Shown: one piece after another, positions 1-8,775 of the stretch | Layout of the letters: every line of letters begins with the position of its first letter | Numbering within the stretch: position 1 is the stretch's first letter | Assembly: GCA_043818275.1 (NCBI GenBank) | Contig: JBDRFY010000079.1 | Span: forward strand, 1 to 38,231 | Length of the DNA stretch: 38,231 bases | Direction: 5' to 3' | Source: a bacterium | GTDB lineage: Bacteria > Babelota > Babeliae > Babelales > JAUWHS01 | Position numbers and translations under genes: made by a program | The notes under the pieces: model-generated | What the model was told of the DNA's origin: nothing | Seen by the model: only the letters and a program-made list of their open reading frames with translations | Databases searched by the model: none

Positions 1-494
1 ATGAGTGTGCCAAGCGAAGCGCATGTTAATAAATCGGTGCAAATCCGATCTTGACAAGGTCTAGCCAACCGTCAAGAACAGAATTCGACATTCAGAGAGG
101 TAACGAACTGGATGAAGCTCGGAGGATGGATGTATCAGGCTGCAACGAAAGTGAATGTATTGAGCCCCGTAATATCCATTGTCGTAGAGGTCGACGCTTT
201 TCATTGTGACGGAAGACAATACCGCTGTAACGATTTGGCAAGGAAACAGCGGCTCTACCGGGGTCTGAGGCAGTGGCATGATACAAAATGGTTAACATGT
301 GAACTTGGGAGATCCACTAAGTTCTTCAATTTTGAAGTACGCCGAAACAAGTCAAACAAAGACGAATAATGCGGATAACTTAGTGGAAGTCGGACTGACT
401 GATAGTACTCTGAGTTTGGGAAAGCCAAGCACATGGCTGCAGATTGACAGCTAAGGGGAAGCGGTCAGAGAAAGTGAAACAGGTTGAAGCAACC

Positions 495-513
495 AAAAAA
501 AAAAAAAAAAAAA
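495..513 (+). repeat. A19 homopolymer upstream of the RT ribosome-binding site
   Basis: 19 consecutive A counted directly. Confidence 0.9.
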
Positions 514-528
514 GAGGTACCAGAGACG

Positions 529-1857
529 ATGAAAAGAACTTACGAAGATAAGCTCAACCTGATAGCTGAAATGGTTAAAAGAGACAAAAAGATTCGACTT
601 ACAACTTTGTATCACATGGTGAATTCTGACAGTCTCGAGAAGTGCTACAAAAAGCTCAACAAGGCGAGCGCTAGCGGCACTGATAGAGTAACAACACGAG
701 AATATGGAGCATACCTAGCGGATAATATCTCAGATTTAAACATTCGACTACGAAGGAAAACATACAAACCTAAATCGGTCAGACGTGTCAACATTCCAAA
801 ACCTGGAAAGAAAGGAGCGACAAGACCTCTTGGGTTACCGGCAACTGAAGATAAACTTGTTCAGATGGTAGCGAAAGAAATACTGGAAGCAATCTATGAA
901 CAGGACTTCAAAGATTTTTCACATGGTTTCAGACCGGGAAAAGGCTGTCATATGGCAATCAAAGAACTCAACAATGCTGTCATGTATAAGCCAATCAACT
1001 GCATTGTTGAGGTAGACATCAAGAAATTCTTCGACACAGTAAATCACAAATGGCTCTACGAAATGTTAAAACAACGAATAGCAGATCCAGTTTTTCTGGG
1101 TCTAATATGGAAAATGCTGAGGGCTGGTGTGATGGAAGGCGGTCAAGTAAAGACGAATGAGATTGGAACACCGCAAGGTGGAATAATAAGTCCAATACTT
1201 GCAAACATTTATTTGCACTATGCGTTGGATCTTTGGTTTGATGCGGTATACCGTAAACGAGCGAAAGGTTATGTTCAACTTATAAGATACTGTGATGACT
1301 TTGTCATGGTATGTGAAAGTAAACATGACGCACATCTATTTCTAGAGCTCCTTGAAGAACGTCTTGCAATGTTTAAACTGGAAATATCGGAAGATAAAAC
1401 CAAAATACTTAAATTTGGAAGACGAGTATGGCAACAAGCACAAAAGAGGAATGAGAAAATTGAAACTTTCGACTTCCTTGGATTTACGCATTATTGCGGA
1501 GCAAGTAGAAACGGATTGGTTATCATGGGACACAAAACATCGAAGCAACGATTGCGAGAAAAACTCAAAGCACACAATTTATGGCTAAAGAAAATGCGCA
1601 ATGGAGTTCCCATGGTGGATCTGTGGAAATTAATAAAAAGCAAGCTAATTGGACATTACAACTATTTTGGAATAAATGGAAACATACGATGTCTAAAGCA
1701 ATATTTTAGACGAATTATATCGCTTTGTTTCAAGTGGTTGAATAGAAGGAGTCAGAAGAAAAGCATGGATTGGAACCAATTTATGAAATATCTTCAGTGG
1801 AACCCTCTACCGCAACCACGAATTTATCACCAAATATTGTACTCTATGCCAAAGTAA
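529..1857 (+). CDS. ltrA: Group II intron reverse transcriptase/maturase, no C-terminal endonuclease domain
   Basis: Motifs RRVNIPKPGK..RPLGLP, SHGFRPGKGCH, VDIKKFFD, GTPQGGIISPILANIYLH, RYCDDFV, FDFLGF, and X/thumb domain GHYNYFG...WLNRRSQ. ATG529 follows GAGGT (514-518); the ORF track starts at TTG484, which reads through the poly-A. Confidence 0.95.
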   Translation: MKRTYEDKLNLIAEMVKRDKKIRLTTLYHMVNSDSLEKCYKKLNKASASGTDRVTTREYGAYLADNISDLNIRLRRKTYKPKSVRRVNIPKPGKKGATRPLGLPATEDKLVQMVAKEILEAIYEQDFKDFSHGFRPGKGCHMAIKELNNAVMYKPINCIVEVDIKKFFDTVNHKWLYEMLKQRIADPVFLGLIWKMLRAGVMEGGQVKTNEIGTPQGGIISPILANIYLHYALDLWFDAVYRKRAKGYVQLIRYCDDFVMVCESKHDAHLFLELLEERLAMFKLEISEDKTKILKFGRRVWQQAQKRNEKIETFDFLGFTHYCGASRNGLVIMGHKTSKQRLREKLKAHNLWLKKMRNGVPMVDLWKLIKSKLIGHYNYFGINGNIRCLKQYFRRIISLCFKWLNRRSQKKSMDWNQFMKYLQWNPLPQPRIYHQILYSMPK

Positions 1858-1874: not shown

Positions 1875-1961
1875 GAGCCGTATGAGGGAAAACTTCAAGT
1901 ACGGTTCTGTGAGGGGCATTAAAACTTTAAAATTATTAGGAGTTAAATATGTCTACTCGAC
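1875..1961 (+). ncRNA. Group II intron catalytic domains V and VI
   Basis: AGC triad at 1876-1878, canonical DV hairpin, DVI with branch A seven nt from the 3' end. Confidence 0.93.
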
Positions 1962-2185
1962 AAAATATGTTTCCGCTAATTAATACGCAAATTATAACAA
2001 ATAAAAAAGGCCAGGAGTTAGGTGTTTTTATAGAAATGAAGGATTATAAATTGTTATTGGAAAAGTTTGAGGATTTAGTCTTAGGTATCATTGCTCATAA
2101 TATTAAAGAGAAAAGTGAAGGCTACGAATCATTAGAGAACATTAAAAAAGAGATAATGAATAAGCGTAAAAATGGAAAAAAATAA
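1949..2185 (+). CDS. Putative antitoxin of a RelBE/ParDE-type pair, interrupted by the intron (spliced form joins 1..4 to 1962..2185)
   Basis: Short ORF (ITNKKGQELGVFIEMKDYKLLLEKFED) overlapping the relE-like gene by 14 nt. Spliced start reads ATG AAA AAT ATG TTT; unspliced start is ATG1949 with AGGAG at 1938-1942. Confidence 0.72.
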   Translation: MSTRQNMFPLINTQIITNKKGQELGVFIEMKDYKLLLEKFEDLVLGIIAHNIKEKSEGYESLENIKKEIMNKRKNGKK

Positions 2186-2471
2186 TTTATATGGTTATAA
2201 AGTTCAATTTGATAAGAAAGCCAAAAAGCAACTTAGTTCTTTAAGCGCAAAAATTCAGGATAAAATATTAAGCAAATTGGAAGAGTTGATTGCCGAACAG
2301 AATAATTTAAACATAAAGAAGCTGTTTCTTTGTAAAAATCTTTATAGAATTAAATGTGGCGATTATCGGATAGTTTATGAACCTTTGCACAATGTTATTA
2401 TTGTTTATATAGTTGCGATTGATCATAGGAAAAAGGTGTATAAGTATATTGAAAAATTATTCTTGTATTAA
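2172..2471 (+). CDS. relE: RelE/ParE-family type II toxin
   Basis: 99 aa, basic; YKVQFDKKAKKQL...YRIKCGDYRIVY...IVAIDHRKKVY matches the RelE pattern. Confidence 0.88.
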   Translation: MEKNNLYGYKVQFDKKAKKQLSSLSAKIQDKILSKLEELIAEQNNLNIKKLFLCKNLYRIKCGDYRIVYEPLHNVIIVYIVAIDHRKKVYKYIEKLFLY

Positions 2472-3584: not shown

Positions 3585-5975
3585 ATGAAGTTTATAAAAT
3601 CTTTTGAAGCAGTTGGATTGAAAGATATTCCATTGGTTGGTGGAAAAAATGCGTCGTTGGGGGAAATGATAAAAAATCTTTCACCTCAGGGAATTTTAGT
3701 CCCTTTAGGCTTTGCTGTTACCTCTCAAGCTTATTGGCATTATTTAAAACAAAATAAATTGGATGATAAAATTAAGAATCTGTTGAATCAATTGGACAAA
3801 AAAAATAAAAATCTAAAACAGCTTGAAAAAGTTGGAAAACAGATTCGAAGTTTAATTGAAAAAGCCACGTTGCCAAAAGATCTGGAAGAACAAATTGTGG
3901 ATGCTTACGAGGAACTTGAGAAAAAGTATGGTAAAAATTGTGATGTGGCTGTCCGCTCTTCCGCGACAGCCGAAGATTTACCAGAAGCTTCTTTCGCGGG
4001 GCAGCAAGAAACCTTTTTAAATATTCAGGGGCAAAAAAACTTATTGGACGCCTGTAAAAAATCTTTTGCATCGCTTTTTACAGATCGTGCAATTTCATAC
4101 AGACAAGATCATGGTTTTGATCACATGGATGTTGCACTTTCAATTGGGGTGCAAAAAATGGTTAGATCTGATCTTGCAAGCGCTGGAGTTATTTTTACTC
4201 TTGATACCGAATCAGGTTTTAAGGATGTTGTTCTTATAAATTCTTCTTATGGCTTAGGGGAGTCAGTTGTAAAAGGTGTTGTTAATCCTGATGAATTTTA
4301 TGTCCATAAACCAACTTTGGAAAAAAATTTTAAACCTGTTTTGAAAAAACGCCTGGGAAGTAAAAAATCTAAATTAATTTATTCAAAAACAGGTGAAAAA
4401 ATAAAAACAGTCGCTGTATCTGAAAATGATCAAAAACTTTTTTCTTTAACAGATGAAGAAATTTTAAAGTTGGCAGAGCAGGCTTTGTTAATTGAAAAAC
4501 ATTATTCAAAAATTAAAAACCGTTGGATGCCGATGGATATAGAATGGGCAAAAGATGGTAAAGATGGAAAAATTTATATTTTGCAGGCTCGTCCTGAAAC
4601 CGTTCATTCTTTAGATTTAAATAAAAACTTTATTCAGGAATATGTTTTAAAAAAAGACAAAGATTTAAAAAATAAAATTTTGGTAACAGGAAAAGGTGTT
4701 GGCAGAAAAATTGTTTCAGGTATCGCCAGAGTAATTAATTCAGCTAAAGAAATATCAAAAATTAAAAAAGGTGAAATTTTAATAACAGATATGACTGATC
4801 CGGATTGGGAACCGGCAATGAAAATTGCAGCAGGTATTGTTACAAACAGAGGGGGTAGAACGTGTCACGCCTCAATAGTAAGTCGTGAATTAGGGATTCC
4901 TGCTATTGTTGGAACGCATGATGCGACTAAAAAAATAAAAACGGGCCAGCAAATCACAATTGATTGTAGTAGTGGAGAAACAGGAGTTATTTATTCTGGC
5001 AAAATTCCTTTTATAATTGAAAAAATTGAGTTAAAAAAATTACCAAAACCTCCAGTTGAATTAATGTTAAATGTTGCTGATCCTGATCAGGCTTTTAATT
5101 TTGCATTACTGCCCCAGGATGGAGTTGGGTTGGCAAGAATAGAATTTATAATAAATAATTCAATTAAAATTCATCCAAATGCATTAATTTATCCAGAAAA
5201 GATTAAAGATAAAAAAATAAAAAAGGAAATAGAGAATCTGACTTTTAGTTATAAGGATAAAAAACAATTTTATGTAGACACATTGGCTCAGGAAGCAGGA
5301 ACAATAGCGGCTGCTTTTTGGCCTAAACCTGTAATAATTCGTATGTCAGATTTTAAAAGTAATGAATATAGAGAGTTAATTGGTGGTAAATACTTTGAAC
5401 CTGAAGAAGAAAATCCTATGCTTGGTTTTCGGGGAGCTTGCCGTTATTACAACGAACAATTTAAACATGCTTTTGCACTTGAATGTTTAGCGATGAAAAA
5501 AATAAGACAAGAAATGGGATTAACTAATGTTAAATTGATGATACCTTTTGTCAGAACAATAGATGATGCAATGAATGTTATTAAAGAAATGACAAAATAT
5601 GATCTCGTGCAAAAAAAAGATGGTTTGCAAATTTATATGATGTGTGAAATTCCAAGTAATGTTTTATTAATAGATGATTTCAGTGAAATTTTTGATGGTT
5701 TTTCTATTGGTTCAAATGATTTAACTCAAACAATTCTTGCCGTTGATCGTGATTCGCAATTAGTCTCAAATCTTTTTGATGAAAGAAATAAAGCTGTAAA
5801 ATTAATGATGATGCAGGCGATTAAGGGCGCAAGAAAAAATAATAAAAAAATTGGAATTTGTGGTCAGGCTCCATCAGATTTTCCTGAACTTGCAGAATTT
5901 TTAATTAAACAGGGAATTAATTCTATTTCTTTGAATCCGGATTCTTTGTTAAGAACTTTGATTAAAATAAAATAG
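3585..5975 (+). CDS. ppsA: Phosphoenolpyruvate synthase
   Basis: VGGKNASLGEM, VAVRSSATAEDLPEASFAGQQETFLN, phospho-His motif GGRTCHASIVSRE, GFSIGSNDLTQ, GICGQAPSD. Confidence 0.97.
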   Translation: MKFIKSFEAVGLKDIPLVGGKNASLGEMIKNLSPQGILVPLGFAVTSQAYWHYLKQNKLDDKIKNLLNQLDKKNKNLKQLEKVGKQIRSLIEKATLPKDLEEQIVDAYEELEKKYGKNCDVAVRSSATAEDLPEASFAGQQETFLNIQGQKNLLDACKKSFASLFTDRAISYRQDHGFDHMDVALSIGVQKMVRSDLASAGVIFTLDTESGFKDVVLINSSYGLGESVVKGVVNPDEFYVHKPTLEKNFKPVLKKRLGSKKSKLIYSKTGEKIKTVAVSENDQKLFSLTDEEILKLAEQALLIEKHYSKIKNRWMPMDIEWAKDGKDGKIYILQARPETVHSLDLNKNFIQEYVLKKDKDLKNKILVTGKGVGRKIVSGIARVINSAKEISKIKKGEILITDMTDPDWEPAMKIAAGIVTNRGGRTCHASIVSRELGIPAIVGTHDATKKIKTGQQITIDCSSGETGVIYSGKIPFIIEKIELKKLPKPPVELMLNVADPDQAFNFALLPQDGVGLARIEFIINNSIKIHPNALIYPEKIKDKKIKKEIENLTFSYKDKKQFYVDTLAQEAGTIAAAFWPKPVIIRMSDFKSNEYRELIGGKYFEPEEENPMLGFRGACRYYNEQFKHAFALECLAMKKIRQEMGLTNVKLMIPFVRTIDDAMNVIKEMTKYDLVQKKDGLQIYMMCEIPSNVLLIDDFSEIFDGFSIGSNDLTQTILAVDRDSQLVSNLFDERNKAVKLMMMQAIKGARKNNKKIGICGQAPSDFPELAEFLIKQGINSISLNPDSLLRTLIKIK

Positions 5976-6007: not shown

Positions 6008-6592
6008 TTATCCACCAATTCTTTGTTGTAATTGTTGAACTAATTTTGTTAATTCAGTAATTTTCTTTTCTAATTCTGCAATTTTACCATCTGATTGAGT
6101 TGTTGCTGTTGTTGGCGTGGTATAAGTTGGTGTTGGAGCTTTTGGCGCTGTGTAAGTTGTTGGCGCGGTATAAGTTTGAGTTGTAGCTTTTGGCGCTGTG
6201 TAAGTCTGCGTTGTAGTTTTTGGAGCCGTGGAAGTCGTAGTTTTTTGTGTTGTATAATCTTTTGTCTTGGTTGAGGTTGTGTCTGTTGCAGAAGTTGCGC
6301 CTGTTTGAGATGTTGCAGCTCCCGTAGATGTTTTTGGGTTATAATTAGTAATTGTTGTTACATGACTTGGCAAGGTCAGCGCGCTTCGTTGCGCTGAAGT
6401 TAATGAAATTGGGTTTCCAGCCAAAAAATTATTCGCTTGTTGTTGTCCAAGAATATTTACAAGCGCTGCCTCCATAACGTTTTGTTTAGGATAATAATTA
6501 TCCCCCCTGCTGTTGAGGTACCAGATTTGAGTTTTAGCGCCCAAATTCATAGTAAAAATTAAGAAAAAAAGCAGTAAAAAATATTTTTTCAT
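6008..6592 (-). CDS. Secreted Thr/Pro/Ala-rich low-complexity protein with C-terminal coiled coil
   Basis: Signal peptide MKKYFLLLFFLIFTMNLGA, Thr-rich repeats, heptad tail IAELEKKITELTKLVQQLQQ; GGGAG SD upstream. Confidence 0.8.
   Translation of the reverse strand: MKKYFLLLFFLIFTMNLGAKTQIWYLNSRGDNYYPKQNVMEAALVNILGQQQANNFLAGNPISLTSAQRSALTLPSHVTTITNYNPKTSTGAATSQTGATSATDTTSTKTKDYTTQKTTTSTAPKTTTQTYTAPKATTQTYTAPTTYTAPKAPTPTYTTPTTATTQSDGKIAELEKKITELTKLVQQLQQRIGG
6121..6228 (-). repeat. Intragenic degenerate 30-bp tandem repeat (APKxTTQTYT)
   Basis: Units at 6121-6150, 6151-6168 (shortened to 18 bp), 6169-6198 and 6199-6228. Confidence 0.8.
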
Positions 6593-6714: not shown

Positions 6715-6981
6715 ATGATTTCTTTTTTATTAGGTTTAGGGCTAGGCATTTTTTATAGTCATGCGTTTTTATTTCAGCAAAAGAAAAATTTTAATTTGTC
6801 AGTTCAAAAAAAGACAATAATCCGTAATTCTGTTTTTAGCATGTTTACAAGATTTTTGATTTTTCTTTTATTTCTTATCTTTTTTTCTTTAATATTAAGC
6901 ATTAATATTTTTTTAGTTATTTTTGGTTTTTTGATTTCTTTTTGGTTGTATATTTTTATTTCTCTTAGGAAAAAAATATGA
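6715..6981 (+). CDS. atpI: ATP synthase subunit I / AtpR-like membrane protein
   Basis: Small hydrophobic ORF (SMFTRF) overlapping the atpB start by ATGA. Confidence 0.65.
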   Translation: MISFLLGLGLGIFYSHAFLFQQKKNFNLSVQKKTIIRNSVFSMFTRFLIFLLFLIFFSLILSINIFLVIFGFLISFWLYIFISLRKKI

Positions 6982-7838
6982 ATATCTCGATTTTTGAATA
7001 TTGGGCAGTAAGACCATTAGCTAAATTTGGTTTAACCGGTAAATTTTGGGATATTCATTTAGATACCTTAATTTATACATGGGCAGCGATGTTGCTTTTG
7101 TTTGGCGTATCTTTAGTTGGTGTTTATTTTATAAAAAGAAAAATTAATATTGTTTCACTGCTTACAGAACAAGGAGTTGATTTTTTTATAAATCTTACCA
7201 AAGAATCTATGGGTTCAACTTTTACTTATAAACATTTTGCATTTATTGCAACCATGTTTTTTTATACGCTTTTTTGTTGCTTAATTGGATTATTTCCATA
7301 TCTGGAAGAATCTACAAAAGATCTGAATACAACTTTGGCTTTGGCAATTATAAGTTTTTTGTATGTTCATTATCAAAAAATAAAATATAAGGGGTTGAAA
7401 GGTTATTTAAAAGAATATATTGAACCCTTTTTTGTTTTACTTCCATTAAACGTAATTGGGGAAATTGCAAAAGTTATTTCAATGTCATTTCGTCTTTTCG
7501 GAAATATTTTGGGTGGTGGAATTATATTTTTTATTGTTGTTGAAGTTATTAGAGTTTATAAGATTCCTTTCATGATTTTTACATTAGTTGTTTTAGCTTC
7601 TTATTTTATTATTAATAAATTTGTAGATTTAAATGCGCATAGAATTTTAAAAATTCACCTATATACTTTTTTAGGATTAATTTTCTCTCTAGCCTGGTTA
7701 CAAATGTTTTTTGGGGTTTTTGAAGGAGTTGTGCAGGCTTTTGTCATAACAATGCTGACAATAACTTATTTAGCTGTTGGTATTCATAACGAAGATGAAG
7801 TAGTAAATCAAAAAGGAACTCAAGATGTTGACGCCTGA
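6978..7838 (+). CDS. atpB: Fo ATP synthase subunit a
   Basis: TKDLNTTLALA, PLNVIGEIAKVISMSFRLFGN (essential Arg), VQAFVITMLTITY. Confidence 0.95.
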   Translation: MNISIFEYWAVRPLAKFGLTGKFWDIHLDTLIYTWAAMLLLFGVSLVGVYFIKRKINIVSLLTEQGVDFFINLTKESMGSTFTYKHFAFIATMFFYTLFCCLIGLFPYLEESTKDLNTTLALAIISFLYVHYQKIKYKGLKGYLKEYIEPFFVLLPLNVIGEIAKVISMSFRLFGNILGGGIIFFIVVEVIRVYKIPFMIFTLVVLASYFIINKFVDLNAHRILKIHLYTFLGLIFSLAWLQMFFGVFEGVVQAFVITMLTITYLAVGIHNEDEVVNQKGTQDVDA

Positions 7839-8775
7839 ACTATTACATTATTTTGCTGTTGGAATTCCTGTTGTTTGTGCCGGATTAGGTACAGGAGTTG
7901 GACAAGGAATTGCGGCTTTGGGAGCAATTGAATCTTTAGTACGTCAACAATTGGGAAGAGAACAAAGTTTCAGAGCGATGATTATTGGGCTTGCTTTGGT
8001 TGAAAGCGCTCTTGTAATTGCTTTAGTTGTTTCAATTTTAACTTTGTTTGGTCCGCAAGCAGTTATTACCTGGCCAATCGCGTTTGCGGAATTAGGTATG
8101 AGTATAGCAATTGGTTTTTCTTCTTTATTCGTAGGTTTATCTTCAAGTTATGCTGTTAGATCCGCGTGCATTTCGATAACAAGACAACCATTTGCAAGTC
8201 AAAAAGTTTTAACTTTAATGTTGCTTATTCAATCTTTAATTGAAGCGGCGTTAGTTTTTTCTTTTATAGTTGCCTTGTTTATTAGAAATGGAATAAATCC
8301 TGAACTTGATATTTATGGTGGTTTAAAATTGTTATCCGCAGGTCTTGCGATCGGTATAGGTTGTATTGGTCCATTACTTGGGCAGGCTATTTTTGCAAAT
8401 AAAGCTTGTCTGGCTGTTGGATTTAATTCGGATGCATATAAAAGAGTATTGCCTTATTCGCTTTTGAGTGAAGCGGCGATTGAAACGCCTTTAATTTTTT
8501 CTTTATTAGTATCGTTATTAATTCTTTATTTTCCTTTAAATCCTTCAAATTATTTTTTATCGATTGTTAGTTTTTCTATTGCTGCCGTTACAATTGGTTT
8601 GGGGTCTTTTGGCGCTGTTGCTTCAGGAAGAGTTTCAGCTAAGGGATGTCAGGAAGTTGCTTTGAATTCAGAAATTTATGCTTCATTATTGCGTTCAACT
8701 TTGTTGGCTCAGGCATTTATTGAATCAACTGTTATTTATGCATTAATAGTTTCTTTGTTTTTGTTAATACGCTAA
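7825..8775 (+). CDS. atpE: Fo ATP synthase subunit c, four fused c hairpins (316 aa)
   Basis: Four 80-aa repeats, each with a Gly/small-residue helix and a conserved Glu (E60, E140, E220, E300); RQ loop in repeats 1 and 2. Confidence 0.92.
   Translation: MLTPELLHYFAVGIPVVCAGLGTGVGQGIAALGAIESLVRQQLGREQSFRAMIIGLALVESALVIALVVSILTLFGPQAVITWPIAFAELGMSIAIGFSSLFVGLSSSYAVRSACISITRQPFASQKVLTLMLLIQSLIEAALVFSFIVALFIRNGINPELDIYGGLKLLSAGLAIGIGCIGPLLGQAIFANKACLAVGFNSDAYKRVLPYSLLSEAAIETPLIFSLLVSLLILYFPLNPSNYFLSIVSFSIAAVTIGLGSFGAVASGRVSAKGCQEVALNSEIYASLLRSTLLAQAFIESTVIYALIVSLFLLIR

Follow-up and report, generated by a model that had tools for sequence, protein, structure and literature searches.

A four-hairpin F-type c subunit in Dependentiae and its proposed place in a mixed ATPase rotor

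The atpB-c4 locus

An atpI-like gene, atpB, and a gene for a multi-hairpin c subunit, hereafter c4, lie in close succession in the window, the whole 38,231-nt stretch of DNA analysed here (Table 1). The c4 reading frame begins with ATG and contains no internal stop codons. A Pfam scan gave the four stretches of PF00137 that the first-pass annotation had predicted (E value 1e-33; 115.8 bits against a cut-off of 24). A six-frame search of the genome resolved c4 into four separate PF00137 matches, at 7852-8040, 8092-8283, 8332-8523, and 8581-8763, each of which exceeded the curated cut-off alone. The AlphaFold2 model, calculated from an alignment of 71 sequences, agrees (mean pLDDT, 94.0; pTM, 0.89); it consists of four helical hairpins, or eight helices, and the limits of helices and hairpins were taken from it. 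The four hairpins carry Glu in the contexts LVES, LIEA, AIET, and FIES, and are far from near-identical repeats, with 13 to 20 identities per 77 to 80 positions; the earlier suggestion of a non-uniform rotor is supported. F-type c models outscored those for subunit K on c4 (98.9 versus 41.2 bits), which bears out the F-type assignment, and we conclude that c4 is a natural four-hairpin F-type c subunit. Identification as a V/A-type subunit K was rejected, given the far higher F-type scores and the F-type neighbours and partners; c4 also differs in its eight helices.

Table 1. Features of the atpB-c4 locus (window coordinates)
Feature	Coordinates	Strand	Notes
atpI-like small membrane protein	6715..6981	+	88 aa; putative c-ring assembly factor; sits before atpB
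atpB, Fo subunit a	6978..7838	+	286 aa; PF00119, E value 3.5e-35
c4, four-hairpin c subunit	7825..8775	+	316 aa; profile, genome search, model
Hairpin 1, residues 4-74	7834..8046	+	Q27 and E60, canonical outward half-site; loop RQQ
E60 codon	8002..8004	+	sequence
Hairpin 2, residues 83-156	8071..8292	+	S107 replaces the Gln ligand; E140, A141, F145; loop RQP
E140 codon	8242..8244	+	sequence
Hairpin 3, residues 163-235	8311..8529	+	Q187, E220, T221, P222, F225
E220 codon	8482..8484	+	sequence
Hairpin 4, residues 243-315	8551..8769	+	S267, E300; S301 and Y305, canonical outward half-site
E300 codon	8722..8724	+	sequence

The atpI-like frame matched PF03899 with an E value of 0.017, under the curated cut-off, and an NCBIfam scan of it gave no match. 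Subunit a is the single match of its kind across the genome; its stator residue, Arg172, lies within RLFGN and is present in 147 of 149 aligned rows of the phylum alignment, the remaining two being gaps. The first 14 nt of c4 lie within the end of atpB. The same adjacency recurs throughout the phylum Dependentiae: in 149 of 150 loci c4 immediately follows subunit a, the remaining locus being cut by a contig end, and of 149 genomes, 98 have the c4 start at most 5 nt, and 147 at most 30 nt, from the a stop. The gene for a single-hairpin c subunit (single c; see below), unlike c4, is mostly preceded by a gap. Such tight coupling of the c4 start to the a stop fits about one c4 per a. The gene order in Dependentiae is atpI-atpB-c4 in one locus and c-b-b'-delta-alpha in another, transcribed separately; the arrangement is that of an operon with subunit a, a multi-hairpin c, and a single c, split between the two c genes.

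Elsewhere in the window, positions 484-1857 (+) encode a 457-residue reverse transcriptase (PF00078), which we take to resemble a group II intron maturase. A pair of overlapping small frames at 1949-2471 (+) has, from translation, the look of an antitoxin and a RelE-type toxin. The product of the frame at 6008-6592 (-) begins like a signal peptide, contains Thr-rich repeats (TTQTYTAPKA), and has a coiled coil at its C terminus; it gave only weak Pfam matches.

A second c gene and the ion sites

The first-pass annotation had reasoned that, if c4 were the only c gene, the ring would be limited to multiples of four (c8, c12, or c16), with a fixed ion/ATP ratio. The genome search found a canonical single-hairpin atpE of 84 residues on contig C64 (33002-33256), directly before genes for b-like, b'-like, delta, and alpha subunits, and all 150 relatives surveyed also encode a single-hairpin c, in open frames of 82 to 136 residues. 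Because a second c gene is present, neither the limit nor the fixed ratio follows. Although four hairpins with four Glu residues would suit c4 as the only rotor subunit, an intact canonical atpE beside b and delta in every genome makes a c8, c12, or c16 ring of c4 barely credible. The single c could have been a binning artefact; this was dismissed, given that contigs C64 and C79 are alike in G+C content (30.0% and 30.8%), that close homologues are named Dependentiae, and that 19 single-contig genomes contain c4 and single c on the one contig. Named homologues of both c proteins come from Candidatus Dependentiae/Babeliales.

Genes for a, alpha, beta, and gamma occur once each in the genome (1.33 Mb, 94% complete). 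F-type partners were identified by similarity or motif (a; b-like and delta; alpha, beta, and gamma), beta and gamma being picked by motif. An epsilon-like frame follows beta and was assigned by position only, as was the second b-like (b'-like) frame, which has no b-family match. The only alpha paralogue found was the F-type beta.

The single c has the full set Q32/E65/S66/Y70, the same four positions named as Na+ ligands for Ilyobacter tartaricus c (PMC2359735). Such a site is shared by two adjacent hairpins, one supplying Gln and Glu and the other Ser/Thr and Tyr; in the fused K subunit of Enterococcus hirae, the Ser/Thr and Tyr side belongs to the preceding hairpin (PMC2359735). We scored each junction in 149 genomes for Q/E, an acid, S/T, and Y. 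The full ligand set was found in 111 genomes at c>c, 97 at c>h1, 116 at h4>c, and 113 at h4>h1, and in none of the 149 at each of the inner junctions h1>h2, h2>h3, and h3>h4. The inner junctions of the present genome read S/E/S/I, Q/E/A/F, and S/E/T/F. Thus, both ends of c4 are canonical, its inner sites are degenerate even when they keep Glu, and a retained Glu does not equal an intact Na+ site. From these ligand patterns, Na+ would be the coupling ion, its signature being confined to the single c and the outer junctions.

Canonical ends with degenerate inner sites fit an arc of c4 inserted among single c subunits in a ring. With h4>h1 complete as well, the pattern at the ends fits a ring of c4 alone equally well. 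In such a scheme c4 would form its own ring (for example, three copies, 12 hairpins), a low-gear rotor that alternates with a single-c ring on the same a and F1; separate transcription of the two c genes is consistent with this. However, only one in four sites would be complete, and the tight coupling of c4 to a single-copy a gene points to a low copy number. The R-Q-P motif, present in the F1-facing loop of hairpin 2, is missing from those of hairpins 3 and 4, and in other bacteria a related gene lies directly before the single c gene, as does that for Acetobacterium woodii c1. We consider a ring of c4 alone unlikely.

Conservation in Dependentiae and relatives in other bacteria

The first-pass annotation had also proposed a survey of taxonomic distribution, which we carried out on 151 genomes drawn evenly from the phylum. 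The c4 profile matched in all 151, at one locus each; genome G064 matched only weakly and was left out of the c4 counts, which cover 150 c4 sequences and 149 complete sets. Exactly five PF00137 matches were found in 130 of the 151 genomes. None of the 151 single-c loci had a second c match beside the single c, so that the two c genes were adjacent in none of the loci examined. A related-locus search of genome contigs with one query gave only one locus. Since the genomes are kin, these counts describe a distribution, not separate events.

Acids at the four hairpins followed the patterns E/Q/E/D (61 of 150 c4 sequences), E/Q/E/E (36), E/E/E/E (23), E/M/E/D (12), D/Q/E/D (5), E/Q/G/E (4), E/E/E/D (2), and others (7). 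Four acids are present in 25 of 149 genomes, three in 117, and two in 7; at least one hairpin lacks an acid in 124 of 149, whereas the c4 of this genome keeps all four. The 72 nearest homologues are biased the opposite way, with 55 E/E/E/E. Retention of all four Glu residues, as first described, therefore holds for this protein but is a minority state in the phylum, and it leaves no inner junction with full ligands. The exact 80-residue period, likewise correct for this protein, proved incidental: 80/80/80 spacing occurs in 8 of 150 sequences, only the spacing between hairpins 2 and 3 is nearly always 80, and the period was discarded as a constraint.

Conservation differs by position. Hairpin 1 has its acid in 149 of 149 genomes and Q/E at position 27 in 125; position 140 is E in 28, Q in 108, and M in 12 of 150; hairpin 3 retains E220 in 143, P222 in 138, and F225 in 144 of 150; and hairpin 4 has an acid in 147 of 150 (D 82, E 65) and Y305 in 147 (Tyr in 146 of the 149 complete sets). 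The GxGxG packing motifs are conserved. The single c acid is retained in 151 of 151 genomes, and its Gln is missing in 17 of 151. In a hairpin tree, each hairpin position formed its own clade across the phylum. The c4 units are 21 to 25% identical within a genome and 36 to 49% identical to the same position in other genomes, which, with the position-specific clades, indicates that the fusion is old and position-specific; c4 diverges faster than the single c, which is 56% identical between genomes.

The faster divergence of c4, the dispensability of its inner acids in many lineages, and its encoding with an atpI-like gene and atpB, apart from the other subunits, might be taken to mean that it serves as a template for assembly or as an accessory bound to subunit a (a ring nucleator acting with AtpI, or an ion-leak regulator), the working ring being of single c only. 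We regard such a role as quite unlikely: the invariant acid of hairpin 1 and the nearly invariant Tyr of hairpin 4 are needed to complete neighbouring ion sites, the packing motifs are conserved, and c1, a homologue, is a stable component of its ring (PMC9171764).

In six genomes of family f11 (loci L007-L156, L158-L307), Leu or Met replaces the Gln ligand of the single c, and position 27 of c4 is Leu too. From sequence, this is possibly a joint switch away from Na+, and probably one event. The Gln position covaries weakly between hairpin 1 and the single c, in f11 and not in f5.

A tree of subunit a and single c, built without c4, placed this genome in a group of 28 with support of 0.999, of which 24 have four acids; one four-acid genome, G054, lies outside. 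In an a + c tree with 33 outgroup loci, the four-acid clade was monophyletic (0.948) and the rest unsupported (0.158). Four Glu residues in this c4, four acids in most of its clade, and the frequency of E220 and of an acid at position 300, which suggests selection, would agree with a mixed ring in which every c4 acid is active, H+-coupled or Na+/H+-promiscuous, and the gear ratio is hardly changed in this clade. Against this, the single c has all four Na+ ligands in 111 of 149 genomes, and E140, E220, or E300 was lost independently in 4 of the 28 clade members; we hold full activity of the c4 acids to be highly improbable.

The wider search used P0073, a three-hairpin protein outside the c4 group, as query and returned 80 of 374 confirmed metagenome loci, many of them near-duplicates and all selected by similarity to that one query. 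Among these 80 listed loci, 58 have subunit a, a multi-hairpin c (two to six hairpins), and a single c in that order; 12 have no visible a, 8 no visible single c, and 2 another order. Of the multi-hairpin genes, 69 were complete. Their first hairpin carries E in 59 cases, and F at +5 occurs in 64; in the last hairpin, Y at +5 is common (62), but E is found in only 13. Among their 106 inner hairpins, Q occurs in 89 and E in 8, so that most are ion-blind, as is hairpin 2 in most Dependentiae. Pro at +2 occurs in 77% of the inner hairpins of other bacteria (identical genes removed), versus 91 to 93% of Dependentiae hairpins 2 and 3. Five loci (L337, L345, L357, L379, and L380) encode, downstream of subunit a, a six-hairpin c of which the first hairpin alone has Glu; a single c follows in four of the five, and in loci of sufficient length the six-hairpin match lies near 4001.

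Both hairpin trees placed the Dependentiae hairpins among multi-hairpin proteins and not among single c subunits. Derivation of c4 from a doubled two-hairpin unit (h1h2 to h3h4) was unsupported, as the sister pairing shifts with outgroups: h2 and h4 were sisters without them (0.84), and h2 and h3 with them (0.90, 0.88). With all 65 columns, h2 and h3 grouped within the Gln-type inner hairpins from other bacteria; this nesting was gone once six motif columns were removed, and regain of the inner Glu is only a possible direction of change.

Three further proteins came to light. P0204 (1139 residues, labelled Promethearchaeota) and P0229 (968 residues, with 12 cluster members) are uniform c concatemers of 15 and 13 hairpins with Glu in every one; on their sequences, they are candidates for single-chain rotors. 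P0332 (524 residues, labelled Candidatus Gracilibacteria) is a seven-hairpin c with Glu in all.

A proposed mixed rotor

The best solved relative of c4 is A. woodii c1 (4BEM_J), by sequence (E value 6e-16) and by Foldseek (E value 2.8e-5). In VIA-align, 4BEM_J was the best match to the c4 model among natural proteins (Z score, 14.5; rmsd, 1.4 Å over 152 residues); two designed helical repeat proteins that outranked it (rmsd, 3.8 and 8.9 Å; 9% identity) were discounted as generic helical matches. A. woodii c1 has two hairpins, the second without an acid (PMC7911925), and one c1 assembles with nine single c subunits in a mixed Na+ ring, c1(c2/3)9 (PMC9171764). Like c4, A. woodii c1 (AtpE1) and Clostridium aceticum c1 are multi-hairpin F-type c subunits encoded directly after atpI-atpB, and a single-hairpin c is co-encoded in the same genome. 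The first hairpin of A. woodii c1 keeps Q...E-S/T, as do Q27, E60, and S61 of c4, and the two share Phe for Tyr on the inner face and Tyr on the last hairpin; in c1, the first hairpin ends E-T-x-x-x-F and the last T-T-x-x-Y. In contrast to c1, c4 has four hairpins rather than two, and in this genome it keeps all four acids; its hairpins are 21 to 25% identical, versus 58% for C. aceticum c1. The Dependentiae operon is split between c4 and the single c, the genes not being adjacent, and the bacterium is host-dependent, with no respiratory chain detected. We have not filed c4 as a c1, since neither the hairpin number nor, in this protein, the loss of an acid agrees. Nevertheless, c4 likely works as c1 does, and we read it as likely an extended form of the A. 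woodii hybrid rotor.

Other fused c subunits resemble c4 less closely. Archaeal A-type c (13 hairpins in Methanopyrus kandleri; duplicated in methanogens) is, like c4, a natural fusion, in M. kandleri of more than two hairpins (bioRxiv 10.64898/2026.10.01.756066), but it is the sole c gene and has near-identical hairpins, each with a site, whereas c4 is F-type, with unlike hairpins and a second c gene. For these reasons, and because its inner sites are incomplete, c4 was rejected as a sole concatenated rotor of the M. kandleri type. V-type K/c subunits (E. hirae NtpK, 2BL2; eukaryotic c, c', and c'') also have fused hairpins and fewer sites than hairpins; their fold matches the c4 model over two hairpins. 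Engineered single-chain c-rings of Bacillus PS3 establish that an F-type ring can work with its hairpins joined covalently (PMC8809890), although their units are artificial and identical, unlike the natural, position-specific divergence of c4. The preprint on rotary ATPase evolution cited above names A. woodii as a mixed ring; the terms Dependentiae, Babel, and TM6 are absent from its main text, and its supplements may bear on c4. No paper in the literature searched dealt with a four-hairpin F-type c or with the Dependentiae c subunit.

We propose, with a probability of roughly two in three, that c4, probably in one copy, and several single c subunits form the mixed ring of the only F-type ATPase of this bacterium, likely an ATP-driven Na+ pump. 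In favour are the single c in this genome and in all 150 relatives, the one Fo a and one F1 set, and the layout with subunit a, a multi-hairpin c, and a single c in 58 of the 80 loci listed for other bacteria. Co-assembly of c4 with single c, the copy number of c4, the coupling ion, the direction of operation, and the behaviour of the inner Glu residues are what we infer from these comparisons. In the proposed mechanism, c4 would be made at about the level of subunit a, one per rotor, and form an arc of the ring: hairpin 1 (Q27, E60) would complete a Na+ site with the preceding c and hairpin 4 (S301, Y305) one with the next, while the inner sites would bind Na+ weakly or not at all. Weak or blind inner sites would mean fewer ions per turn, as with A. 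woodii c1. By way of illustration only, a ring of 11 hairpins (one c4 and seven c) with 8 full sites would carry 2.7 Na+ per ATP, versus 3.7 ions per ATP with all 11 acids working.

The proposed enzyme would hydrolyse imported host ATP and energise the membrane, a task that a lower ion/ATP ratio would suit. Matches to the ATP/ADP-translocase family number six in the genome, and none were found to COX1, cytochrome bd, Nqr/Rnf, or complex I membrane families, although absence from a genome 94% complete is not proof. Reverse operation of the phylum's ATPase has been proposed (PMC4776705, PMC6561590); the passages concerned speak of protons and make no mention of a c subunit. A membrane pyrophosphatase clears both a sodium-named and a proton-named NCBIfam cut-off and was for that reason set aside as a sign of Na+ energetics. 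One ATP/ADP-translocase-family gene, after beta/epsilon (G000:C37:11656-12985), appears split in two overlapping frames.

Several points weigh against the mixed Na+ ring with weak inner sites, among them the complete h4>h1 junction, the non-adjacent c genes of Dependentiae, the 17 single c subunits that lack Gln, and the weak covariation at that position. This c4 keeps four Glu residues, unlike c1, and its inner sites may still carry ions. In the engineered PS3 H+ ring, one E56Q substitution abolishes ATP synthesis (PMC8809890), so that several consecutive blind c4 sites need explaining. A further, rather doubtful version of the mixed ring is that the inner hairpins of this clade regained carboxylates without Na+ ligands, giving a rotor in which the single-c sites take Na+ and three c4 sites at fixed positions take H+. 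If true, this would be a two-ion rotor, position-specific, with its gear ratio retuned between lineages by single Q/E/D switches.

To our knowledge, mixed F-type rotors have one solved example, that of A. woodii, with a two-hairpin subunit. Throughout Dependentiae, an entire phylum of protist parasites, the four-hairpin version is fixed, and relatives with two to six hairpins occur in other bacteria; mixed rotors are therefore likely to be far commoner than the searchable literature suggests. The natural series of two, three, or four acids per c4 offers a way to test how long a run of blind or weak sites can be tolerated by an F-type rotor, and whether the ion/ATP ratio can be tuned at constant ring size.
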